Below, in pieces: positions 1,738 through 14,091 of a stretch of 29,383 nt of DNA. Location of the stretch: contig JAZSJR010000222.1 in the NCBI GenBank assembly GCA_045534415.1, forward strand, positions 1 to 29,383. The letters run 5' to 3'. Position 1 is the first letter of the stretch. The number at the start of each line of letters is the position of its first letter. Both the position numbers and the translations under genes were made by a program. The stretch is from Clostridia bacterium. GTDB lineage: Bacteria > Bacillota > Clostridia > UBA1381 > UBA9506. The notes beneath the pieces are model-generated. The model ran no database searches and was not told where the DNA came from. It saw only the letters and a list, made by a program, of their open reading frames with translations.

Positions 1738-1814
1738 GAGGGTATAGCTCAGTTGGTTAGAGTGCTTGCTTGACATGCAAGAGGTCGATGGTTCAAGTCC
1801 ATTTATCCTCACCA
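1738..1814 (+). tRNA. tRNA-Val (anticodon GAC)
   Basis: Cloverleaf: acceptor GAGGGTA/TATCCTC, D arm GCTC..GAGT, anticodon arm CTTGC-TTGACAT-GCAAG, T arm GATGG-TTCAAGT-CCATT, and an encoded 3' CCA. Confidence 0.97.
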
Positions 1815-1883: not shown

Positions 1884-3470
1884 TTATTTAATATTCTCAT
1901 TCAATTCCGCTTCAATTGCTTTTGCATCAGCTTCAATTGCAGCGATCTGAGATTGCCATTCGGCTTCGGGATTACCAGCCATAACAACATCCAAAAGAAT
2001 TTCGTGGGTCTTAACCTTTGCATTGAATTTAGAAAGTGCATCAGAGCTGTAGAACTGAACGCCCAAGTCAACCATGCTAAAGGCTCTATCACCATTCAGT
2101 TTTGCAAGACCCAGCTCGTTTAAAGAACTCATGCTTGCCATGTCAAGACCATCTTTGGGAATATATTTTTTGTCAGCAAAGTTACTGCTAATTAAAGAAT
2201 TAAAAATGCCGATTGAAGGATACTTGTCAGCCATCTTATAGCCACCCTCTTCATCAGTGGGCGGAATCAGACGAGTAATGGTATCACCTTCCATTTTATA
2301 GTCAACACCTTCAAGACCATAGTTCTTCAGCATTGCACCATCATTACCTGCAATATAATCCATAACGGTTAGCAGTCTGTCAAATTTTTCATCGCTCATA
2401 GCCGGACTATAATAAGAGCATTCCCAGAAGTCAGTATTTTCACGACCATGAATCTTGCCGTCCGGTGAAGTAAACCAACACAAACCTAAAACATCATCTG
2501 CTTCAAGACCGGGATTGGATTCTTCAAACAGCTTTTTAAGGTTCTTAAATGCATTGACACCGCTCCAGTTTTCGTAGTAAATACCAGCTTTACCGGTTAC
2601 AAACAGGCTCTTAACGTTATCTAACTTATGTGCAAAGAAGTTAGGATGCAAAATGCCTTCTTTGTAAGCCTTTGCATACTCTAAAACACCGTCTTTGGTT
2701 GCCGGATCGGTCATACCGTAAACATACTTGCCGTCTGCACCTTTACGGAACATATTATAGCTGCTGTTATAAGCAGTTACAAAAATGTTGGGTGCCTCGG
2801 TGTAATGTACAGCAATACCAACAACGTTGTCTTTGCCTACACCACCTAAGTCTGCTTCTTTAAACTTTTTAGCAGCAGCCATTAAATCTTCATAAGGCAT
2901 AACAGTAGAAAATTCAATCCCCAGCTGCTCTGCCCAGTCTTTTCTGTAAACAAAACCATACATATCAACGTTTACGTCAAAGCCTTCTTCGTAAACTTTC
3001 GTGCCAAAACCATAACCGGGAATGAATGTATAAATTTTACCATCGTTAGATTCTTTTAATTTGTCCCAGGTTTTGTTATTTTTCATAACATTCGCAATAT
3101 TGGGGTATTCTTTTTCTAAATTATCAGGTAACGCCCTTACAACACCCTGGCTTGCAAATTTCATATAATCCTTATAGTTAAATGCCCATTTGATAATATC
3201 AGGCATATCGCCGGATGACAGCCAGATATTATTCTTTTCTGACCAGTTTTCATAAGAAACACCCAGAGGTTCAAAGGTTACTCCAAATTTTTCAGAAATC
3301 ATCTGATACAAAGCATCGCTGGTGATATCATCTTTAGGATTAACCATTGCAATACGGTAATTGTAGGTTCCGCCTTCGCTCACTTCCGTAGTTTTGCCAC
3401 CACAACCAGCAAGCATACCGACGGCAAGCACAGCAACCATCAGAAATGCCAAAGCTTTTTTTGCTTTCAT
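1884..3470 (-). CDS. Carbohydrate ABC transporter substrate-binding lipoprotein (family 1, LplA-like)
   Basis: 528 aa with a lipobox LAGC after a basic/hydrophobic leader, the SBP-like motif LSSGDMPDII and YRKDW, a strong SD AAGGAGG, and a position downstream of two sugar permeases. Confidence 0.92.
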   Translation of the reverse strand: MKAKKALAFLMVAVLAVGMLAGCGGKTTEVSEGGTYNYRIAMVNPKDDITSDALYQMISEKFGVTFEPLGVSYENWSEKNNIWLSSGDMPDIIKWAFNYKDYMKFASQGVVRALPDNLEKEYPNIANVMKNNKTWDKLKESNDGKIYTFIPGYGFGTKVYEEGFDVNVDMYGFVYRKDWAEQLGIEFSTVMPYEDLMAAAKKFKEADLGGVGKDNVVGIAVHYTEAPNIFVTAYNSSYNMFRKGADGKYVYGMTDPATKDGVLEYAKAYKEGILHPNFFAHKLDNVKSLFVTGKAGIYYENWSGVNAFKNLKKLFEESNPGLEADDVLGLCWFTSPDGKIHGRENTDFWECSYYSPAMSDEKFDRLLTVMDYIAGNDGAMLKNYGLEGVDYKMEGDTITRLIPPTDEEGGYKMADKYPSIGIFNSLISSNFADKKYIPKDGLDMASMSSLNELGLAKLNGDRAFSMVDLGVQFYSSDALSKFNAKVKTHEILLDVVMAGNPEAEWQSQIAAIEADAKAIEAELNENIK

Positions 3471-3517
3471 AATATTTTCCTCCTTGCTTTTATTCCTTTT
3501 TAATTTTATATATTATA

Positions 3518-4390
3518 TCAGCCCTTTACAGCGCCAATCATAATACCTTTAATAAAATATTTCTGCATAAAGGGATATACGCACATAATGGGAACCATAG
3601 TAACAACAACAGTTGCCATTTTTACACTTTGAGAGAATGTTTCCACCCCAAGCTGTTCATCTGACAAAGAACCGGTATTGACTTTGTTCGCAACCTCATT
3701 GATGGTTTCACGAAGTGCAAGCTGCAGGGGCCACTGCTTGGTGTCAGTAATAAACAACAGGGGAAAATACCATTCATTCCACTTACCAACCACACAGAAC
3801 AGCAAAATAGTTGCCAAAATTGGTTTTGCCAAAGGCAGATAAATTTGGAAACAGATTCTGATATCATTTGCACCATCAATTCTTGCGGATTCTTCCAAGG
3901 AATCAGATATGCCATAAAAATAATTCTTTACCAAAATCATATTATATGTACTCATAGCACCAATTAAGATAATCGGCCACAATGTGTTTAACAAGCCCAG
4001 ATTTTTTACCAGGATATAAAGCGGAATAATACCGCCACCAAAGTACATCGGCAAAACAAAAAAGTTGTTAATCGCATTTCTGAGCGGGAACCGTTTACGG
4101 CTCATTGCGTAACCTGCAGTTGCCGTCAGAAACAGGCTGAGGGGTGTATACGCAGCAACAATAATTAAAGAATTTGCAAACCCTCTGGGTATCTTGCTGT
4201 TGGCAAAAATTGCTTTATACGCATCAAAGGTCACATGTTTTACATAGAAGGAGAAAGGATTCTGCATATACTCAGCTTCCGTCATAAAAGATGTGAGAAC
4301 TGTATTATAGAAGGGGTAGAAAATAGCAAATCCCCATGCAATCATCGCCGCTGCTATAATAACATCGGCAAGTGTAATTCGTTTTTTCAT
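3518..4390 (-). CDS. Carbohydrate ABC transporter permease (LplC/MalG-like)
   Basis: 290 aa, multiple TM segments and the EAA loop ESARIDGANDIRICFQIYLPLAKP. Confidence 0.95.
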   Translation of the reverse strand: MKKRITLADVIIAAAMIAWGFAIFYPFYNTVLTSFMTEAEYMQNPFSFYVKHVTFDAYKAIFANSKIPRGFANSLIIVAAYTPLSLFLTATAGYAMSRKRFPLRNAINNFFVLPMYFGGGIIPLYILVKNLGLLNTLWPIILIGAMSTYNMILVKNYFYGISDSLEESARIDGANDIRICFQIYLPLAKPILATILLFCVVGKWNEWYFPLLFITDTKQWPLQLALRETINEVANKVNTGSLSDEQLGVETFSQSVKMATVVVTMVPIMCVYPFMQKYFIKGIMIGAVKG

Positions 4391-4392
4391 CT

Positions 4393-5349
4393 TTATTTAC
4401 CCCCTTCCAGAACGCCGACACCTTGTACTTTCTTCGAAAATACATTGGCAACAGTGAGTAACATAAAGTTAATAACTGAAGTAAACAAGCCAATCGCTGT
4501 TGTGAATGAGAAGCTTCCGCCCTGCAGGAACGTATAATTGTAAATATATACATCCAGGGTTTCAGCAACCTCAGAAATAGCAGGGTTCTGCATATTAAAT
4601 ATCTGATCAAAGTGACCGCTGATTAAACTACCAATTTTCAAAACAAGCAGCATACTGATGGTGGTGCTGATACTGGGAACTGTGATATAGAACATTTTCT
4701 GCCAACGACTTGCGCCATCAAGCTCTGCCGCTTCATAAAGCTCTGCATCAATACCGGCAATCGCAGCCAGATATACAATACTGCTCCAACCAGCACTCTT
4801 CCATATCTCTGTTATAATCAAAACAGGAATAAAAAGTTTTTTCTCACCCAGGAACGTAATTCTGTCCATACCGAAGAAATTTATAACGGCATTGATTGGA
4901 CCGTTAAAATCTAAAAAGTTGATAAAAATACCGGACAGAATAACCCAGGATAAGAAATGAGGAAAGGTGTAAACTGTTTGCAGGGTTCTTTGTAATTTGC
5001 TACTACGCAGCTCATTAAAGAACAACGCAATCAAAATCGGCATAGGGAAAGTAAAAATAATAAACAAAAAGCTGATTTTAACCGTATTCCAGAACACATA
5101 CCAAAAATGTGAATCTGTTACAACCTGCTCAAAAATGTCAAATCCAACCCAGGGGCTCTTCAAAATACCAAGTCCCGCATTGAACTCCTTAAACGCAAGG
5201 AGCAAGCCATAGAGCGGGCCGTAACAAAACAGACCAATCATCAAAACACTCGGAAGCAGTAACAGATATAAATATCTTGACTGCCACATTTCCTGACCGA
5301 GTCTGCGTCTCTGTACACGCAATTCTTCTTTTCCTACTTTCGCTTTCAA
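4393..5349 (-). CDS. Carbohydrate ABC transporter permease (LplB/MalF-like)
   Basis: EAA loop LYEAAELDGASRWQKMFYITVP and the motif PHFLSWVI typical of LplB-like permeases. Start moved from 5370 to the TTG at 5349, which follows SD AGAGGTG. Confidence 0.93.
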   Translation of the reverse strand: MKAKVGKEELRVQRRRLGQEMWQSRYLYLLLLPSVLMIGLFCYGPLYGLLLAFKEFNAGLGILKSPWVGFDIFEQVVTDSHFWYVFWNTVKISFLFIIFTFPMPILIALFFNELRSSKLQRTLQTVYTFPHFLSWVILSGIFINFLDFNGPINAVINFFGMDRITFLGEKKLFIPVLIITEIWKSAGWSSIVYLAAIAGIDAELYEAAELDGASRWQKMFYITVPSISTTISMLLVLKIGSLISGHFDQIFNMQNPAISEVAETLDVYIYNYTFLQGGSFSFTTAIGLFTSVINFMLLTVANVFSKKVQGVGVLEGGK

Positions 5350-5391
5350 TGTAACATCACCTCTAGTCATTGTTCATCAATATTTTATTCT

Positions 5392-5460
5392 ATTATAAAT
5401 AATTCTTATGAAATAAGATAGGGAAAATCCTAGGATATTTATGTCATATCCTAGGATTTT
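5392..5460 (-). promoter_or_regulatory. Activator-dependent promoter of the ABC operon with a tandem operator candidate
   Basis: TATAAT at 5397-5392 with a poor -35 (TATCTT, 5420-5415). Two palindromic ATCCTAGGAT boxes at 5427-5436 and 5448-5457 (21-bp period) lie immediately upstream and together form a 14-bp inverted repeat (5424-5460). Confidence 0.65.
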
Positions 5461-5469
5461 GCATACATT

Positions 5470-7182
5470 CTATATGGAAAGCTGTCTGACCGTAATAAGA
5501 ATTTCCGTCCCCTCTCCTACTTTACTGAAGACAGAAAGCCCGCAACCATCACCATAGGTCAATTTTAATCTGGTGTGTACATTTAAAAGACCATAATGGT
5601 CCCCTGCGTCATCCTTAACGCTGGCTGCGTTATTTTCTAAAAGAGATGATTGTATTTTTGCAAGCGTTTCAGGTTCAATGCCCCGACCGTTATCCTTAAC
5701 CGAAATTTCTACATAGCCGTCATCTCTGATTTTTCCATCCAACTCCAGCACACCGTCTGCACCCAGGTCTCCGTGCTTTAAGGTGTTTTCAACAAGAGGC
5801 TGAAACACCATTTTAATAATACTCTGTTCCATCACCTCTGGCGGTATGTGGATGTCGAGCCGGATGGGGTTCCCGCGCCTTGCGTTTACTACATTAAAAT
5901 ATGACAAGGCATAAAACAAATCTTTCCTCACCGTTGCTTCTCTGCCGGCATCCATGTTGTACCGGAAATTCTGGGACAAGACGCTGGTGATATCAGCAAT
6001 TTTTTCTACACCGTGTTCTTGAGCAACACCTTTTATATATTCCATAGAATTATATAAAAAGTGCGGGGAAATTTTTTCTTGCAGTTGCTCTATCTGCGCC
6101 TCTAACTGCAAAAGCTTCGCCGTGTGAACTTCCTCCTCCATCACCTGATTTTTATGAATTGTTGCCTCATACTCATCCAAAAGCTTATTGAAACTTTTGG
6201 CAATGCTGTTAATTTCATTATTACGCTTATAGCGGATTCTGTGACCCCACTGGCCGCCACAAATGACGCCAATTTCTTCTTCAATATCTGAAATAGATTC
6301 AGATATATTTTTAATCAGAATTTTAATCAGCACAGTTAAAAGCATAATATTTAAAAGAATTACCACCGCCATGAACATAAAAAATGTGCTTTGGTCAGAG
6401 CCAATGCTGGTTTTGGGGACTGAAAAACAAAGCTTCCATTTCGGTTTTGTCATGGTAACCATTTTGCACCAGGAATCTGCTGCATGAACATCCTCAGAAA
6501 AGGTCTGTCCAAATTCCCCTTCGTGGCCTGATAGTAAAATAGTGTCGTTATAATTCAAAACACGAAGGGTGAATTTTTTACGGTCAAAAACCGGTTCTAA
6601 GTAGTTTTCCACTTCCCCCACCTCAAACATAATCACAACGTAATAAGGCAGGTCATTTTGCCGAAAATCATTCAAGGAACGAATCCGGCTGACATAAGCA
6701 AAACAGTTCGTGTCCTGATACTGATACGCTTTTACAAAGCTTTGCGTGGTCAGTTCAACCGGAATATCTTGTTTAACCTGATCCAGCACCGAAAGTGAGC
6801 GAATCATATCCGTTCCCTGCGATACATTTAAAAGAATATTTTTACCATCTAATAATGCAACGTATTTAATGTCCTTATTGGCAAAAATAATGGAGGTTAT
6901 ATTGTTTAAAATCAAATTATAGTTTTCATATGTCCTGTTTACCTGAGGTTCAAACAAATAGTCCAGCACATAAGAATCGGTCATAATGTTAATGGAGACA
7001 TCCTCTACGCTTTTATAAAGCTCCACTACCCGCTCCGCCGTTTGGTTGGCTGTTGCCTCAATTAACGAATCACGCATATTCCTGTTCCAGCTCTGAAACA
7101 GAAAAAAGAAACATAATTGAATTAGTAAAAACAAACTGAATGTTCCTGCAATAATCCAGGTAAACCAGGTTTTAATCTTCAT
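5470..7182 (-). CDS. YesM-like membrane sensor histidine kinase
   Basis: Two TM segments flank an extracellular domain, followed by a HAMP-like region, H-box EKISPHFLYNS, N-box QPLVENTLKHG, G1 DNGRG and G2 HYGLLNV. Start chosen at ATG 7182 (after SD GGGG), overlapping the regulator stop. Confidence 0.93.
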   Translation of the reverse strand: MKIKTWFTWIIAGTFSLFLLIQLCFFFLFQSWNRNMRDSLIEATANQTAERVVELYKSVEDVSINIMTDSYVLDYLFEPQVNRTYENYNLILNNITSIIFANKDIKYVALLDGKNILLNVSQGTDMIRSLSVLDQVKQDIPVELTTQSFVKAYQYQDTNCFAYVSRIRSLNDFRQNDLPYYVVIMFEVGEVENYLEPVFDRKKFTLRVLNYNDTILLSGHEGEFGQTFSEDVHAADSWCKMVTMTKPKWKLCFSVPKTSIGSDQSTFFMFMAVVILLNIMLLTVLIKILIKNISESISDIEEEIGVICGGQWGHRIRYKRNNEINSIAKSFNKLLDEYEATIHKNQVMEEEVHTAKLLQLEAQIEQLQEKISPHFLYNSMEYIKGVAQEHGVEKIADITSVLSQNFRYNMDAGREATVRKDLFYALSYFNVVNARRGNPIRLDIHIPPEVMEQSIIKMVFQPLVENTLKHGDLGADGVLELDGKIRDDGYVEISVKDNGRGIEPETLAKIQSSLLENNAASVKDDAGDHYGLLNVHTRLKLTYGDGCGLSVFSKVGEGTEILITVRQLSI

Positions 7183-8650
7183 ATTCAACATCCCCTACGT
7201 GCTTTTTTCGATACTGATAAGGGGTAACACCTACGTATTTTTTGAAAATTTTATTAAAATAACAATAATCACCATAGCCGACAGATTCTGCAATGTTCGA
7301 AATGTTCAGCCTTGTGCTTCTGAGAAGCTCTTTCGCTGTTTCAATGCGAATATCTGCCAGATATTCAATAATGGTTTTATGGGTCAGAGTTTTGAAAATA
7401 TCGCTTAAATATGCCTCACTGATATAAAACATAGAGCCCAGTTCTTTAATTCGGATTTTTTGAACGTAATTTTTCTCAAGATATTCCTTCACTTGCTGGA
7501 CAATCTCGGCAGAATTAACCTTTGCTTTTTCAGAAACAAATTCATCCTGATTCTCCAAAATTGCCCCGAGAGCCTCATTCAAGGCATGACACATATTCAA
7601 AACATCCGGATATTCATTCAATAACTCTTCAAAAGATAAAATATAAAGAAAGTCTTTTTTACCTTTTTGCCGCAACAACGAATTTAAGCGGATGACAAAC
7701 GCATTGTGGAAAAAAACTACCTGTTCCATTGTATAATTTTTTTGAACAGCCCGCTCCGGTAACGATTTCAGCAAGTTATATAGTGCTTCAAAATCCTCCC
7801 GCTCAAAGGATTGTTCCATGGTGTTCATCAAGCTGTCAAAATCCTTTTCCACGCCTTCTTCAATTTTATAAACCCCAAAACAACCGTTGATAAACGTGCC
7901 ATAGGCAAGCATATTCGCCTGCTTGAATCCGGAATAAATTTCTTCTGCAGCGCTCACAACATCGCTGATGCCCAAGGCCATATTGCTGAAGCTACTGAGG
8001 TTTTCCAGCAAAATCATACTGTTTTCGCTTAAAGGCTCTTTGACCACCAGTAAGTATTTTTTGCTGCCAATTTTATATCGCTTAACAAGTTTCTCCTGCA
8101 GACACAAATTAAGGGATTCAAGACTGGCCTTTTCCATACAGCTGACAACAAACCGATATCTGCCGGGGAAGGTAATGCCACTCTCCAGCATAAAATCCTG
8201 AAATTGCTGTCTGCTTGACAAAAAGCTGTTAATATCATTCAATTGCACGCCGGTTGCATCACCAAACCGCACATTTAATTCGTTCATCAGTTTTTCAGTT
8301 GTCACATCCACTTCATATTCCGTAAAAGGCTTCAGCAGGTAATATACCACATCCAGCCTGATAGACACACGGGCATATTCAAAATTATTGTGCCCGCTGA
8401 TAATGACAAACAACGTCTTAGGAAGCAGGCGTCTGCATTCTTCAATCACCTGCAAGCCGGACACAATGCCCATTTCAATATCAATAAACACAATGTGGGG
8501 GTTTTCCTGCACAATCCGGTCCACAAGACCATGAGGGTCACTGATTTTTACAATGTCACGCACATGTAAACTGTTCCAGTCAAAGGCACTGTAAACACTT
8601 TCAACTGCCTCAATTTCATCATCAACAATCAGCGCTTTGTACATATCCAT
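7172..8650 (-). CDS. YesN-like response regulator (receiver domain plus AraC HTH)
   Basis: N-terminal LIVDDE and phospho-acceptor FIDIEM, YLLKPF, and a C-terminal AraC signature (YLSDIFK...IAESVGYGDYCYFNKIFKKYVGVTPYQYR). The start may be the ATG at 8644. Confidence 0.94.
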   Translation of the reverse strand: MDMYKALIVDDEIEAVESVYSAFDWNSLHVRDIVKISDPHGLVDRIVQENPHIVFIDIEMGIVSGLQVIEECRRLLPKTLFVIISGHNNFEYARVSIRLDVVYYLLKPFTEYEVDVTTEKLMNELNVRFGDATGVQLNDINSFLSSRQQFQDFMLESGITFPGRYRFVVSCMEKASLESLNLCLQEKLVKRYKIGSKKYLLVVKEPLSENSMILLENLSSFSNMALGISDVVSAAEEIYSGFKQANMLAYGTFINGCFGVYKIEEGVEKDFDSLMNTMEQSFEREDFEALYNLLKSLPERAVQKNYTMEQVVFFHNAFVIRLNSLLRQKGKKDFLYILSFEELLNEYPDVLNMCHALNEALGAILENQDEFVSEKAKVNSAEIVQQVKEYLEKNYVQKIRIKELGSMFYISEAYLSDIFKTLTHKTIIEYLADIRIETAKELLRSTRLNISNIAESVGYGDYCYFNKIFKKYVGVTPYQYRKKHVGDVEYED

Positions 8651-9057: not shown

Positions 9058-9195
9058 CTACTCTTCTTTTTCTGCTTCGCTTTTTTGCAACGCCTTTTGG
9101 GTTCCCTGGTGGTTAATCTCCGTCGGTTCAGGAAGTAAAAGCTCTGTTGCTTTTACAAACTTGTAACCCTCTGCCTGCAGTTTTTCAATTACTTG
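9058..9195 (-). pseudogene. Remnant A: 3' end (45 codons) of a polysaccharide deacetylase gene
   Basis: Translates QVIEKLQAEGYKFVKATELLLPEPTEINHQGTQKALQKSEAEKEE*. The first 33 aa are identical to those encoded at 28654-28752. There is no ATG. Absent from the ORF track. Confidence 0.9.
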
Positions 9196-9452
9196 TCTCC
9201 TCCTGCTTTTTGTATAGAAATGGCATTATATCCTTTATTATATTATAAAGCATTTTTTCTTCCGCAAGTAGCAAAACCACGCTTTTATTGATTTTTTGAA
9301 CATTTTATCGGCAAACGAAAAAAATGCTTCTGTACAAGGTGATACTATTGCTAAACTTCTCTCCTTAAATCCTGAAAAAACCACCCTTTTTCTCCCATAT
9401 TTAAAGAATTATTCCTCAACAATGTTTCGTCCATATAAATGTGTTTACTACA

Positions 9453-9482
9453 TTTACAATAATTGTGCTAAATTGTTATAAT
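9453..9482 (+). promoter_or_regulatory. Putative promoter of the catabolic operon
   Basis: TTTACA (9453-9458), an 18-nt spacer, then TATAAT (9477-9482) with an extended -10 TG, upstream of SD AAGGAG and ATG 9536. Confidence 0.5.
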
Positions 9483-9535: not shown

Positions 9536-10252
9536 ATGAAAAGAAAAATCAGAACTCCCTATTTTGAAATTGGGACAAAAAATTACATATATGGCGATAC
9601 GGTTTTAGAATATGCTATCGCAGCAGATAAAGCCGCTGAAAAATATGACATTGATGTTTTGTTTATCTGCCCGGCTGTTGAAATCAGACGGGTGGTTGAA
9701 AACACCAAACATCTGATTGTTTTAGCACCTTATATGGATACCCTGCGCCCCGGTCGCGGCATGGCAGACATTCTGCCTGAAGCATTAAAAGCAGCCGGTG
9801 CAGAAGGCGTTGTTGTAAACCACTGCGAAAAGCCCATGAGCCTGCCCCAGATCAAGGCAACCATTGACCGTGCCAACGAACTTGACATGCTGGTGTTTGC
9901 CTGTGCTGACTCTGTTGCAGAAACAAAAGCAATTGCCGAACTTCACCCTGACATTATTAACCCCGAACCCTCTGAACTCATCGGCGGCACTGGAGGCGGT
10001 GTTTCTGATATGGGTTATGTTGTGGAAGTTATCCGCGAAATCAGAAAAATTGATCCGGATATTTTAATTGAACAGGCTGCCGGCATTACAAACGGCCAGC
10101 AGGTGTATGATTTCATTATGGCGGGTTCTGAAGCAGCCGGTGCTGCCTCCGGTATTATGAATGCCGAAGATCCCCTTGCGATGATCGACGAAATGATTGC
10201 CGCAACAAGACGGGCAGCCGATGATTTAAAACATCAACAGGAGGGTAAATAA
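9536..10252 (+). CDS. Archaeal-type triosephosphate-isomerase-family protein, probably a sugar-phosphate isomerase rather than glycolytic TpiA
   Basis: 238 aa. Motifs LPEALKAAGAEGVVVNHCE (catalytic His), EPSELIG (catalytic Glu), AAGI and AASG match short archaeal-type TIMs. The N-terminal motif is GTK rather than N-x-K. Confidence 0.85.
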   Translation: MKRKIRTPYFEIGTKNYIYGDTVLEYAIAADKAAEKYDIDVLFICPAVEIRRVVENTKHLIVLAPYMDTLRPGRGMADILPEALKAAGAEGVVVNHCEKPMSLPQIKATIDRANELDMLVFACADSVAETKAIAELHPDIINPEPSELIGGTGGGVSDMGYVVEVIREIRKIDPDILIEQAAGITNGQQVYDFIMAGSEAAGAASGIMNAEDPLAMIDEMIAATRRAADDLKHQQEGK

Positions 10253-10253
10253 T

Positions 10254-10748
10254 ATGATATACAGAGAATCTTTTAAAGTTCAGTCAAGAGACAGAGCCAT
10301 TTCCTTTCACGATGTAACCTCCCAGGCGAGAGAAATTGTGAAAAAAAGTGGCGTGAAAGAGGGCATCTGTGTGGTATATTCACACCACACCACCTGCTGC
10401 GTCATCACTCAGGAATGTGCTTTTGATATGTCAATGACCGGCCTTGAAACCCTGCAGCAGGACCTTGTTAATGTAATGGATAAAATGGTACCTGAATGTA
10501 AATATGAAGGCATGTATCTCCATCCCGGTCCGAAAGCATTAAAATTTGCCGAAGAGCACGATGAAGATGCCTGGGGTTGCCACAATACCGACGCACACCT
10601 GCGCTCCTCCATCATCGGCAGAAGCGAAACCATCGTCATTGAAGATGGCGAAATGGATTTAGGCGAATTTGGTTTTATTCACTTTATTGATTTTGATAAC
10701 ACCCGTGCAAGACAAAGAACTGTACAGGTTATGGTTATCGGTGAATAA
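10254..10748 (+). CDS. YjbQ/UPF0047-family protein
   Basis: 164 aa with HTT, N-x-DAHLRSSIIG-x-SETI, DLG-x-F and a C-terminal FD..R.RTVQVMVIGE, all typical of UPF0047. It starts 1 nt after the TIM stop. Confidence 0.9.
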   Translation: MIYRESFKVQSRDRAISFHDVTSQAREIVKKSGVKEGICVVYSHHTTCCVITQECAFDMSMTGLETLQQDLVNVMDKMVPECKYEGMYLHPGPKALKFAEEHDEDAWGCHNTDAHLRSSIIGRSETIVIEDGEMDLGEFGFIHFIDFDNTRARQRTVQVMVIGE

Positions 10749-10760
10749 GGAGAAAATGGC

Positions 10761-12110
10761 ATGGAATATTTACTTGGTTTAGACATCGGCACCTCCTCTG
10801 TGAAAGGTGTTTTAATGACAACAGAGGGAAAGGTTATAAAAACTGCCAAGGGTGTTTTTGATTACAGAATCCTTGAAAACGGCGGATTCGAGATTGATGC
10901 AAAGGCTTTTTCCTCCGTCTGTTTGGCTACCATTCGCGAGCTCGCACAAAGCACAGATGCAAAAATCTGCGGTGTCTGTGCAGCTTCTGCCAGCGGTAAT
11001 CTACTGATTTTAGATGAAGATAATCAGCCCGCCACACCAATTTATAACTGGCAGGATCATCGCGTTACAACAGAAACCCAGGAAATTTTAGGTCCTATGG
11101 ATTTGGATGCGTTATATCGGCGTATGGGTTGGCCCTTTAGCTATAAAGGATTGCCACTTGCTCTTTTATGTTATGTAAAAAAACATCAGCCAGAAGTTCT
11201 AAAAAACAGCAAAATGGTGTGTATGAGTACGGAGTATCTGTACTACCTCTTAACCGGTAAATGGGGCATCAGCACCTCGGCCGGTACACCTTTTTACCTG
11301 ATTGACCAACAAACAGGGCAATACATTCCCGAAATCCTGAATGCTTTAGAAATCACCGAAGAACAGCTGCCACCCATTCTTCCCTGTGGCAGCGTTTTGG
11401 GCGGTGTTCTCCCCGAAATGGCAGAGATTTGCGGTCTGCCTGCTGAAACCCCCGTGGTGTTAGGCACCTTTGACCATCCCTCTGCGGCCCGCGGAGTTGG
11501 TGTTTTAAATGAAGGCGAGGTTCTGCTTTCCTGCGGCACTTCCTGGGTAGGTTTCTTCCCCATTAAAGACAGAAACAAAGCCGCAGATGCCAAGCTTTTG
11601 CTTGACCCCTTCTTAACCGCCGACGGCGGATGCTGGGGTACAATGGTTTCTGTTGCCTCGGTTGCAAACCGCATTCAGTTATATGTGCACCGTTATATTG
11701 ATGATTCTGACCAGGCATACAGCATTTTGTCTGAGCTTGCCGCGAAGAGCACTCCCGGTGCTGGCGGGCTCACCATTTGTCCCAATGACGAGCCTGACGA
11801 TGCTAAAATTAAAAGCTATAAAAAAGAAGATATTGCCCGTGCCATTATGGAGGGAACAGTTCACCTGCTTCAAAAACAACTAAGCCGCGTGAAAAATTTA
11901 GGGATTGACTTAAGCTCTGCCGTTATGGTTGGCGGCCCTTCTGTTGACCCCCTGTGGCACAAACTGATTGAAGAAATCTGCGGCGTCACGGTTCGTGTTT
12001 CCCGTGGGGCAAATGCCGGTGCTGTCGGTGCCGCTATGATGGCAGGAATCGGCACTGGATTATTTAAAAACGAGTTATCGGCTTATAATGCTTGTAGCAA
12101 AGGAGAATAA
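10761..12110 (+). CDS. FGGY-family carbohydrate kinase
   Basis: 449 aa with phosphate-1 motif LGLDIGTSSVKG, WQDHR, GTFDH, SCGTS, RAIMEG and GAVGAAMMAGIG. Confidence 0.92.
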   Translation: MEYLLGLDIGTSSVKGVLMTTEGKVIKTAKGVFDYRILENGGFEIDAKAFSSVCLATIRELAQSTDAKICGVCAASASGNLLILDEDNQPATPIYNWQDHRVTTETQEILGPMDLDALYRRMGWPFSYKGLPLALLCYVKKHQPEVLKNSKMVCMSTEYLYYLLTGKWGISTSAGTPFYLIDQQTGQYIPEILNALEITEEQLPPILPCGSVLGGVLPEMAEICGLPAETPVVLGTFDHPSAARGVGVLNEGEVLLSCGTSWVGFFPIKDRNKAADAKLLLDPFLTADGGCWGTMVSVASVANRIQLYVHRYIDDSDQAYSILSELAAKSTPGAGGLTICPNDEPDDAKIKSYKKEDIARAIMEGTVHLLQKQLSRVKNLGIDLSSAVMVGGPSVDPLWHKLIEEICGVTVRVSRGANAGAVGAAMMAGIGTGLFKNELSAYNACSKGE

Positions 12111-12115
12111 TAACG

Positions 12116-13147
12116 ATGCTTAAATTTGTTGTGAATGACTACGACCGTCTTGTTTACGAAAAAGAGATTATCCCCTTTTTGCCTGATGCCTTTATTGATT
12201 TTCACACGCATATAAACAAACTTTCCTTTGAAAGTTGGGGGCAGCATAATGGCGGTTCATCCTGGACAGGACTTGTGTACGACGAACTGCCCACAGAAGA
12301 TTTAATAAAATGCTACGACCTGCTTTTTCCGAAGCATAAGGTAACCCCTCTCATTTTCGGCGGTTGCCTCTGCGACATTGACGCGGTCAATGATTATGTG
12401 CGTGATGATGGTCGTAAGTACAGCTTTCCCACTCTTTACAGAACCTCTTACGATATGCCGGCAGACGAACTGGAAGAAAGAGTTAAGGCAGGCGGTTTTC
12501 TGGGCTTAAAGCCTTATCTCAGCAACTGCCCCCCTTATCTGCCTGTAAGCGAGATTCGTATTTACGACTTTTTACCAAAGGAACATTTAGAGGTCGCAGA
12601 CAAAAATGGGTGGATTGTCATGTTGCACATTCCCCGCGCTCTGCGCCTTAAAGACCCTGTGAACCTGGCTCAGTTATTGGAGATTGAAGAAAAATACCCC
12701 AATCTGAAACTGGTTGTTGCACACATCGGCAGAGCCTATTCAAAAGAAGATATCGGAAATGCCTTTGACCTTTTGGGTAAAACAAAAAACATGTATTTTG
12801 ACTTTACCGCAAATGTTTGCGATGACGCCATTCGCGCCTGCATCGAGGCAGTTGGACCTGACCGTTTAATTTTTGGCTCCGATCTGCCGATTGCTACCAT
12901 GCGTATGTACCGCATTGTTGAAAACGGCGTTTATTATAATGTTGTTCCCCGCGGCCTGTACGGAGATGTTGACGGCCAGCCACATATGCGTGAATCTGAT
13001 GAAGAAAACATCACCATGATGTATTACGAACAGATTCTCGCCTTAAAGCGTGTTGCAAGTCAGTTAAAACTAAAGGATTCTGACATTGAAAACATTATGG
13101 CAGGTAACGCCAAGCGCTTACTCAAAGAAGCAAACTTTATTTTATAA
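12116..13147 (+). CDS. Amidohydrolase-superfamily metalloenzyme (Amidohydro_2-like)
   Basis: 343 aa with metal ligands DFHTH (HxH), MLHIP, VAHIG and FGSDLP, plus GLKPY. Confidence 0.88.
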   Translation: MLKFVVNDYDRLVYEKEIIPFLPDAFIDFHTHINKLSFESWGQHNGGSSWTGLVYDELPTEDLIKCYDLLFPKHKVTPLIFGGCLCDIDAVNDYVRDDGRKYSFPTLYRTSYDMPADELEERVKAGGFLGLKPYLSNCPPYLPVSEIRIYDFLPKEHLEVADKNGWIVMLHIPRALRLKDPVNLAQLLEIEEKYPNLKLVVAHIGRAYSKEDIGNAFDLLGKTKNMYFDFTANVCDDAIRACIEAVGPDRLIFGSDLPIATMRMYRIVENGVYYNVVPRGLYGDVDGQPHMRESDEENITMMYYEQILALKRVASQLKLKDSDIENIMAGNAKRLLKEANFIL

Positions 13148-13198: not shown

Positions 13199-13219
13199 TA
13201 ATGAATTCAGGTGATGCCA

Positions 13220-14091
13220 ATGTTATATCTTATTCTGAAATTAAAATCCATTCCGGAGCCGGTGTTTGCTCATGTTTACTCCTGCCCGGAATACAAATGC
13301 CACTTTAAAGAAGCGGTGCCCAATTTAGAAATTCTATATGTAATCAGCGGAAATCTGACCGTAAACATTTTAGGCAAAACCTATATGGTAAAAGAAAAAA
13401 GTTTCTTACTGCTGCCTCACAAATATCCGCTATATATGGAAGTTCAAAAAGATGAAACCTATGTGCACTACACCGTTTCGGCTATGGTGGATGCAGATAC
13501 CCGGCTCATTGAAGGAATGCCCGATGTTCTGGTACCCGATGAAATCTGCGTTCCGTTTTTTTGGAACCCTGCGACCAAACCGAAGAGATGGTCTTTCTTT
13601 TAAAAAAAGCGGTGCAGGAATATCAGAATGCAGACCCGATCAGCAAACAAAAGTGCGGCATTTATTTTGTAGAACTGCTGTGTGATATTGCAAAAACGAC
13701 CAAAACAGAAAAAGAAACAAAAATCAGCAAAATGCAAGATATTTTAGACAGCCGCATCAAACTTTATATTGAAAAAAATATCAGCCAGAAAATAGCATTG
13801 GGCGACATCGCTGAAGCCATTGGCAAAAACGCTAATTACCTGAACCAGGTTTTTAAGAAAAAGAACAATATGCCGATTATTTCTTATATTAACCTTGTAA
13901 AAATGAAAAAGGTTGCTTCCTACATTAGCAGCGGAAACATGACATTAAAGGAAGTGGCAAAAGAAGTGGGTATCACCGATACCAGTTATCTTTCCAGGTT
14001 ATTTAAGAAAAAAATGGGTATGAGCATTTCAGAATTTAAAAACTGCTCGGCTGATATTACATTCACTTTAAATGACCTCGATAAAATTTAA
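13220..14091 (+). pseudogene. AraC-family regulator split by a frameshift in a T7 run (13556-13562)
   Basis: ORF 13211-13603 has a cupin-like sensor (LEILYVISGNL). ORF 13561-14091 has the AraC HTH (NANYLNQVFKK, EVGITDTSYLSRLFKKKMGMS). One added T joins them as ...VPFFLEPCDQ.... The likely start is ATG 13220 after SD AGGTG. Confidence 0.88.

Follow-up and report, generated by a model that had tools for sequence, protein, structure and literature searches.

A TIM-like/YjbQ gene pair joined to an isomerase, kinase, and hydrolase trio in an uncultured Clostridia-type bacterium: a candidate uncharacterized sugar-catabolic locus

The DNA window analyzed here is one complete 29.4-kb contig (29,383 nucleotides [nt]; JAZSJR010000222.1) from an uncultured Clostridia-type bacterium with a 1.54-Mb genome in 231 contigs (93% complete). 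Four plus-strand open reading frames (ORFs) stand in a row at 9536-13147, with spacers of 1, 12, and 5 nt, and encode a triose-phosphate isomerase (TIM)-like protein, a YjbQ/UPF0047 protein, an FGGY-family sugar kinase, and an Amidohydro_2 protein. The gene for an AraA-like isomerase lies approximately 14 kb away from this operon. A sequence-only reading of the window had described four tightly coupled genes behind one promoter and an aldose-ketose isomerase at the other end of the same block. Both descriptions held, as the ORFs, the gaps, and a single promoter-like site (putative) were found, and the start at 28351 fits the AraA-like ORF. The operon joins two separable modules, the AraA-like/FGGY/Amidohydro_2 trio and the TIM-like/YjbQ pair. 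We favor, with moderate confidence, the interpretation that the locus encodes an uncharacterized nonoxidative phosphorylative sugar-catabolic route of two conserved modules, in which TIM-like/YjbQ would form a carbonyl-shifting back end. The five genes are as follows.

9536-10252, plus strand: TIM-like isomerase, an archaeal-type triose-phosphate-isomerase paralog, 238 amino acids (PF00121, PRK04302)
10254-10748, plus strand: YjbQ/UPF0047 protein of the TIM-linked subfamily, 164 amino acids (PF01894, TIGR00149)
10761-12110, plus strand: FGGY-family sugar kinase, 449 amino acids (FGGY_N, FGGY_C; no equivalog reached)
12116-13147, plus strand: Amidohydro_2 metal-dependent hydrolase-fold protein, 343 amino acids (PF04909)
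26984-28357, minus strand: AraA-like aldose-ketose isomerase, probable start at 28351

Relatives of the locus were sought in one genome per species, and the best 80 loci of 489 relatives found were kept. These loci span Oscillospiraceae, Acutalibacteraceae, Christensenellaceae, Lachnospiraceae, Paenibacillus, Treponema, Kiritimatiellia, Verrucomicrobia, and Actinomyces. Recurrence across taxa was the test that the sequence-only reading had set for its proposal, and the gene set was indeed found in several phyla. YjbQ was encoded downstream of the TIM-like protein in all 75 evaluable species-level loci: 72 were directly adjacent (YjbQ start -60 to +400 nt from the TIM-like stop codon), 1 had an inserted gene, and 2 had overlapping ORF calls. 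This adjacency is far beyond chance. In the window itself, the YjbQ gene starts 1 nt beyond the TIM-like stop codon. A long overlap of the two frames was observed in one locus (L092 2888-4203), which could reflect either a fusion or a frameshift in that metagenome-assembled genome.

Neighboring genes were counted within 8 kb of the pair in the 40 loci with at least 5 kb of flank on each side. FGGY kinases were present in 31 loci, Amidohydro_2, AraA-like, and long YjbQ proteins in 22 each, SIS proteins in 21, and DeoR regulators in 17, with gene order and orientation shuffled among the loci. In a JGI metagenome, a relative has the genes for SIS, long YjbQ, TIM-like (89% identity), YjbQ, AraA-like (56%), FGGY (53%), and Amidohydro_2 proteins lined up in one row, and a fructose-6-phosphate-aldolase/transaldolase (TAL/FSA) gene stands beside SIS/long YjbQ in 7 loci. 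All contexts of the pair that we saw were sugar operons with DeoR, AraC, or LacI regulators, a phosphotransferase system (PTS), or ABC transporters. A 320-amino-acid protein without a Pfam family is encoded directly beside the pair in 11 loci (e.g., L068 5577-6539), and a copy with 40% identity is present on another contig (C51) of the window's genome.

The association of the two modules was also apparent at the genome level in a class sample of 399 genomes, where matches were accepted at an E value of ≤1e-40 for the TIM-like protein and ≤1e-50 for the AraA-like protein. The TIM-like protein was found in 46 genomes and the AraA-like protein in 31, with both in 21, compared to 3.6 expected. Among the 17 genomes with a TIM of the window's type (at least 78% identity), 16 carried an AraA-like gene too, compared to 1.3 expected. 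At the genus level, both were present in 14 genera, with 30 genera carrying the TIM-like gene and 21 the AraA-like gene. Since related genomes do not count as independent, these figures overstate significance. The TIM-like and YjbQ proteins share approximately 95% identity with their nearest relatives, but third codon positions at identical residues match in just 46 to 58% of cases, indicating that the pair is old and under unusually strong purifying selection. Recent horizontal transfer as the cause of the high identity was rejected, as synonymous positions are near saturation. In the same loci, the protein identity of FGGY, AraA-like, and Amidohydro_2 was 54 to 69%.

A canonical TpiA is encoded elsewhere in the same genome (contig C70; 323 bits), indicating that the TIM-like protein is distinct from the glycolytic enzyme. 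The sequence-only reading, which an ordinary glycolytic TpiA would have refuted, was supported here, the protein being an extra paralog beside the canonical one. There are three short TIM paralogs in this genome (the window copy and those on contigs C15 and C152), all additional to TpiA; a LacI regulator neighbors the gene on C152, and C203 carries part of a FucI-like gene. The window's TIM-like protein scored 39.9 bits against PF00121 and passed the archaeal-type subfamily model PRK04302 (149 bits versus a cutoff of 132) but failed the glycolytic equivalog TIGR00419 (63.3 bits versus 130.6). Its closest solved structures are archaeal TIMs only (1HG3; E value, 8e-32), and ESM Atlas returned nothing but "putative triose-phosphate isomerase" clusters; the family also gave weak ThiG matches. 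In the alignment with 1HG3, K15, N95-H96-x-E98, E144, and the phosphate-binding loops are retained. G13 stands where TIM has its substrate-polarizing Asn, two positions ahead of the catalytic Lys, and the protein therefore lacks the full Asn/Lys/His/Glu set. Similar to the archaeal TIMs of Pyrococcus woesei (1HG3) and Methanocaldococcus jannaschii (2H6R), it is short and has the catalytic Lys/His/Glu and the phosphate loops. Unlike them, it has Gly in place of Asn, is a bacterial protein present in addition to TpiA, and belongs to a group that is always paired with YjbQ and found in sugar operons. Prediction of a TIM-like/YjbQ complex gave a score of 0.00, which speaks neither for nor against binding.

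The YjbQ/UPF0047 family, for which several crystal structures are available, is represented in Escherichia coli, Bacillus subtilis, archaea, and eukaryotes but, to our knowledge, has no known physiological role. The YjbQ protein of the window passed both family models (PF01894, 98.5 bits versus 27; TIGR00149, 84.5 bits versus 67.75), and its structure model matched 2p6c with a Z score of 18.4 and a root mean square deviation of 1.7 over 136 residues. A wide fold search with this model returned only YjbQ-family structures (Z scores of 15 to 18), with the next best at 4.2. Like E. coli YjbQ, B. subtilis YugU, and TM0723, with which they share the family models and the fold, the TIM-linked members retain the core H-x-T and N-x-x-x-H, plus three invariant arginines; unlike the genome's canonical YjbQ, they have two insertions, with an invariant Y-x-H-P-G motif. 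The residues invariant in the alignment of TIM-linked members are H45, T46, T47, C48, E54, D70, H90, P91, N111, H115, D146, D148, R151, R153, and R155. The gene for the canonical 138-amino-acid protein (contig C34; L005 1441-2952) lies directly 5' of a DUF4432 (mutarotase-like) gene, and DUF4432 was also observed near the pair in 6 related loci.

NCBIfam names the YjbQ family secondary thiamine-phosphate synthase. The activities on record for the family are promiscuous only, namely, a thiamine-phosphate synthase reaction and the ability to suppress a pdxB deletion (PMC3010111). The latter is observed with overproduced E. coli YjbQ and apparently proceeds via formation of a C4 keto-acid phosphate (PMC3010111). 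Suppression of pdxB is compatible with a sugar-phosphate role of YjbQ but is only a lead. The invariant TIM-like partner and the sugar-operon setting narrow the hypothesis for YjbQ to a sugar-phosphate isomerization step. The earlier proposal that YjbQ probably acts on a sugar phosphate fits all of the gene contexts seen.

The sequence-only reading had treated the four genes as a single pathway. This was only partly upheld: the set recurs together, but the trio and the TIM-like/YjbQ pair each occur apart as well. Ten genomes of the class sample carry an AraA-like gene with no TIM-like match at the threshold given above, and in genome G224 the trio and the pair are on separate contigs. In trio-only loci (L099 3987-11773 and L101 3049-13488), the trio is preceded by a gene for a 512-amino-acid class III aminotransferase, and a NagA-like amidohydrolase is also encoded nearby. 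One of these loci adds two GFO/IDH/MocA oxidoreductases, and the other adds an enolase-superfamily protein, an RraA-like aldolase, an SDR protein, and a glycoside hydrolase (GH) of family GH20. More distant TIM-like proteins (45 to 53% identity) still have YjbQ downstream, in other contexts. Pairs without the trio were found in three settings. In one, the neighbors are a class II aldolase and a PTS of the EIIC-GAT family, and in another they are a 2-oxoacid-dehydrogenase complex and an aldo-keto reductase. The third is a natural fusion of a class II fructose-bisphosphate aldolase to the TIM-like protein (P0174; L095 4532-6043), with YjbQ next in line; this operon also encodes a PRD regulator and the PTS components EIIA, EIIC-GAT, and EIIB.

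A second operon type consists of DeoR, TIM-like, SIS (KpsF/KdsD-like), long YjbQ, FGGY, hydrolase, FucI-like isomerase, and TAL/FSA genes and repeats the same logic with nonorthologous parts. The window's genome has this operon type on contig C15 (L008 1-4738), in a cluster with a TIM-like gene truncated by the contig end, SIS, a 206-amino-acid YjbQ, DeoR, FGGY, and a 206-amino-acid protein without an assignment. The hydrolase slot differs by operon, being filled by Amidohydro_2, metallo-beta-lactamase-fold, or creatininase-family proteins or by proteins without an assignment. No transaldolase was found in the window's genome (93% complete). A role of TIM-like/YjbQ in filling a gap in the pentose phosphate pathway was considered and was unsupported, as RpiB is encoded twice in the genome and a class II aldolase-fold protein once.

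None of the five proteins reached the equivalog cutoff of a characterized enzyme. The FGGY kinase has both domains (FGGY_N, 127 bits; FGGY_C, 45.4 bits) and is 53 to 67% identical to the trio kinases of relatives, but it was below the cutoff of all 13 named-kinase models, the top one being XylB (197 bits versus 380). The AraA-like protein scored 98.6 bits against equivalog NF002795, compared to a cutoff of 622, and only the Pfam central and C-terminal domains passed. Its residues E294, E317, H332, and H430/H431 are invariant among 18 sequences and correspond in the alignment to the motifs GEGD, ME, HM, and HH of 7CX7, which we take to hold the active-site residues of AraA. The start at 28351 is plausible, since the alignments of relatives begin at the third residue of the ORF at 26984-28357. 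The remote isomerase had been counted as part of the set, and the comparison agrees: the gene is the sole copy in the genome, its product is 56 to 60% identical to the in-operon isomerases of relatives, and it diverges from these about as far as the window's kinase and hydrolase do from theirs. It is therefore the cognate isomerase, moved by rearrangement. Amidohydro_2 scored 76.3 bits against PF04909 (cutoff, 26.4), its metal ligands H30-x-H32, H171, H203, and D256 are invariant in 27 sequences, and its structure model had a pLDDT of 93. Foldseek gave distant matches (TM scores of 0.5 to 0.62; 13 to 18% identity) to L-fucono-1,5-lactonase, LigI, and gamma-resorcylate decarboxylase. Sugar lactonases matched with TM scores of 0.58 to 0.62 and 13 to 15% identity, with decarboxylases and hydratases scoring equally, and a sequence search of the PDB gave marginal LigY matches alone (E value, 0.002).

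The locus is an isomerase-kinase sugar operon with a sugar-phosphate isomerase relay; the gene set resembles the erythritol/threitol pathways and has the entry logic of the araBAD type but belongs to none of these. The erythritol set of Brucella and Rhizobium comprises the FGGY kinase EryA, EryB, the racemase EryC, EryH, and EryI, which is RpiB (PMC11508834). EryH (TpiA2), the TIM paralog of erythritol catabolism, converts 3-tetrulose 4-phosphate to erythrulose 4-phosphate, and in Brucella, the erythrose 4-phosphate made by EryC, EryH, and EryI is fed into metabolism by Tal and Fba (PMC11508834). The systems have in common an FGGY kinase, a nonglycolytic TIM-family isomerase, further sugar-phosphate isomerases, and an exit link to transaldolase or class II aldolase. 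In contrast to erythritol catabolism, there is no EryB-type dehydrogenase here, the TIM-like protein is a short archaeal-type one rather than a bacterial TpiA2, YjbQ and SIS are found as partners where the erythritol set has an AP_endonuc_2 barrel (EryC) and RpiB (EryI), and entry is by an AraA-like aldose isomerase and an amidohydrolase rather than from a polyol. EryB, EryC, and EryI were all absent from the window; two RpiB-family genes lie elsewhere in the genome, and an AP_endonuc_2 barrel was found in one related operon only.

Mycolicibacterium smegmatis reportedly uses erythrulose kinases and erythrulose-phosphate isomerases in its threitol and erythritol pathways. The route proposed here would be similar in that an FGGY-type kinase phosphorylates a ketose, followed by stepwise isomerization to erythrose 4-phosphate, whereas the isomerase families appear to differ. 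Compared to araBAD, xylAB, and fucIK, the order of an AraA/FucI-fold aldose-ketose isomerase and an FGGY kinase is the same, but the scores are far under the equivalogs, the cluster has no AraD/FucA-type enzyme, and TIM-like, YjbQ, and Amidohydro_2 have no counterpart. L-Ascorbate utilization (Ula/Sga) shares with related operons the EIIC-GAT PTS family, in some cases along with a metallo-beta-lactamase-fold hydrolase and an AP_endonuc_2 barrel, and has the same overall logic of a hydrolase followed by sugar-phosphate epimerizations. However, there is no UlaD-type decarboxylase or UlaF-type epimerase among the annotated neighbors and no PTS in the window. The set was unassigned by any equivalog model or solved structure searched, and a literature search, with subscription journals outside its coverage, yielded no description of it, in line with the earlier statement that the set was not recognized as a named pathway. 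New in this analysis are the fusion to an aldolase, the division into two modules, the co-occurrence counts at the genome level, and the codon comparison.

The analysis establishes which genes are present, that their linkage is conserved, that catalytic residues are retained, that the TIM-like protein differs from TpiA, and that the locus is modular; the reactions, the order of the steps, and the substrate are inferred as follows. In the front end, the AraA-like isomerase would convert an aldose to a ketose, which the FGGY kinase would then phosphorylate (a PTS would do so in other operons). Amidohydro_2 may carry out a preparatory hydrolysis, most likely opening a lactone or another cyclic or acylated form, and the variable hydrolase slot fits a ring-opening or deacylating step. 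The TIM-like protein probably shifts the carbonyl of a phosphate-bearing alpha-hydroxy-ketone longer than triose phosphate, the same kind of reaction as that of EryH, and the back end as a whole would follow the scheme of EryC/EryH/EryI in Brucella. YjbQ probably performs a neighboring epimerization or isomerization, as would SIS where it is present, including the aldose-ketose step; the SIS protein that the cluster on C15 adds is arabinose-5-phosphate-isomerase-like. An aldose phosphate such as erythrose 4-phosphate would then leave through an aldolase or transaldolase to central metabolism, and the aldolase fusion and the TAL/FSA neighbors are the strongest hints for this exit step. A more specific proposal is that TIM-like/YjbQ/SIS are a nonhomologous replacement of the EryC/EryH/EryI relay, with YjbQ as a new class of metal-dependent sugar-phosphate epimerase/isomerase, leading from C4 or rare sugars to erythrose 4-phosphate. 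We regard this version as tentative and rather doubtful.

A number of observations weigh against the two-module route. G13 is confined to the window's TIM-like subfamily, and other YjbQ-linked members, including the aldolase-linked ones, keep Asn. Two genomes with no TIM-like match at an E value of ≤1e-40 (G375 and G081) have contiguous AraA-like/FGGY/Amidohydro_2 genes whose products are 62 to 73% identical to those of the window, indicating that the back end is not obligatory for the front end. The regiochemistry and substrate size of the FGGY kinase are not readable from its sequence, and the modeled Amidohydro_2 matches are too remote to pick among a lactonase, decarboxylase, hydratase, and C-C hydrolase. 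The window encodes neither a C-C cleaving enzyme nor a dehydrogenase, free tetroses are rare in nature, and a search of sequencing runs yielded no expression data.

Some of these observations would be expected if the two modules had independent functions, with the trio self-sufficient and its product a central metabolite. TIM-like/YjbQ would then act on another substrate, or in salvage or repair of a reactive phosphorylated triose- or tetrose-like compound, and would be merely cotranscribed. The occurrence of the trio alone in G375 and G081, its separation from the pair in G224, and the unrelated front ends that accompany the pair elsewhere are consistent with this explanation. However, 16 of the 17 genomes whose TIM is of the window's type also have an AraA-like gene, the modules are contiguous or divergent in most loci with enough flank, and the second operon type repeats the combination with nonorthologous parts. 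We consider independent functions unlikely. A substrate of another kind, a sugar acid or amino-sugar derivative (unsaturated uronate or hexosamine derivative) released from a polysaccharide by a neighboring heparinase II/III-type lyase, is suggested by the 2535-amino-acid SLH-anchored heparinase II/III-domain protein encoded in the island. The aminotransferase, oxidoreductases, NagA-like amidohydrolase, and GH20 that adjoin trio-only loci point in the same direction, as do the relatives of Amidohydro_2, which include sugar lactonases and galactarolactone isomerase. Against this, the lyase is no recurring neighbor in the 80 related loci, nearby glycoside hydrolases vary by locus (GH4, GH9, melibiase, and GH20), the window's genome has no match to that aminotransferase or those oxidoreductases, and family annotation found no KduI/KduD/KdgK-type genes in the window, and such a substrate appears quite improbable to us.

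An ordinary explanation would be a redundant glycolytic TpiA with a thiamine-related YjbQ, or a known pathway of the araBAD, xylAB, or fucIK type. The pass of the PRK04302 model (149 versus 132), the NCBIfam name of YjbQ, and the weak ThiG matches can be read in this way. The presence of a canonical TpiA is not consistent with it, nor are the scores far under the equivalog cutoffs (AraA, 98.6 versus 622; XylB, 197 versus 380; TIGR00419, 63 versus 130.6). An Rfam search upstream of the operon detected no riboswitch, and all of the contexts seen were sugar operons with DeoR/AraC/LacI regulators, a PTS, or ABC transporters. This explanation was already disfavored, and we hold it to be very improbable.

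Two further features lie next to the operon of the window.

9453-9482, plus strand: putative sigma-70-type promoter-like site, TTTACA, 18 nt, and TATAAT with an upstream TG (consensus match, 11/12)
13211-14091, plus strand: AraC-family regulator in two overlapping ORFs (13211-13603, ligand-binding domain; 13561-14091, helix-turn-helix)

The promoter-like site, identified by consensus match alone, is 54 nt upstream of the first ATG of the operon. The AraC-family regulator is broken by a frameshift near T7/A7 runs and is either a pseudogene or an assembly error. In related loci, an intact AraC-type regulator adjoins the cluster, and the protein at 13211-14091 is likely the local regulator of the operon. 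There are three surface-protein genes 3' of the regulator, including that for the 2535-amino-acid protein with heparinase II/III domains and SLH anchors. The block had been called scar bounded, and copies of approximately 100 nt with approximately 87% identity were found at both of its ends. These copies, at 9097-9195 and 28654-28752, are both on the minus strand, encode the same peptide, and correspond to a gene 3' end of approximately 33 residues (ORFs at 9058-9225 and 28606-28932, both on the minus strand). Between them lies a 19-kb block that contains the operon, the genes for the surface proteins, and that for the AraA-like isomerase. A Pfam search of the right-hand scar ORFs (28606-28932 region) gave no family. 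Divergent genes upstream of the operon (1884-8650, minus strand), separated from it by the left scar, encode a 528-amino-acid putative binding protein without a Pfam match, two ABC permeases, a histidine kinase, and an AraC-type response regulator. Between minus-strand genes in the leftmost part of the window is a tRNA gene (1738-1811, plus strand; Rfam, 69.6 bits).

With the locus described here, YjbQ gains its first firm functional context, and many bacteria from the gut, the rumen, and digesters carry the TIM-like/YjbQ pair within their sugar operons. The locus points to a carbohydrate usable by many uncultured fiber-degrading Clostridia and missed by current pathway maps. If the replacement of the EryC/EryH/EryI relay is true, it would provide the long-sought physiological function of UPF0047, a family of all domains of life. 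It would also mean that gut and rumen anaerobes use C4 or rare sugars, such as L-erythrulose and L-threose from ascorbate breakdown.

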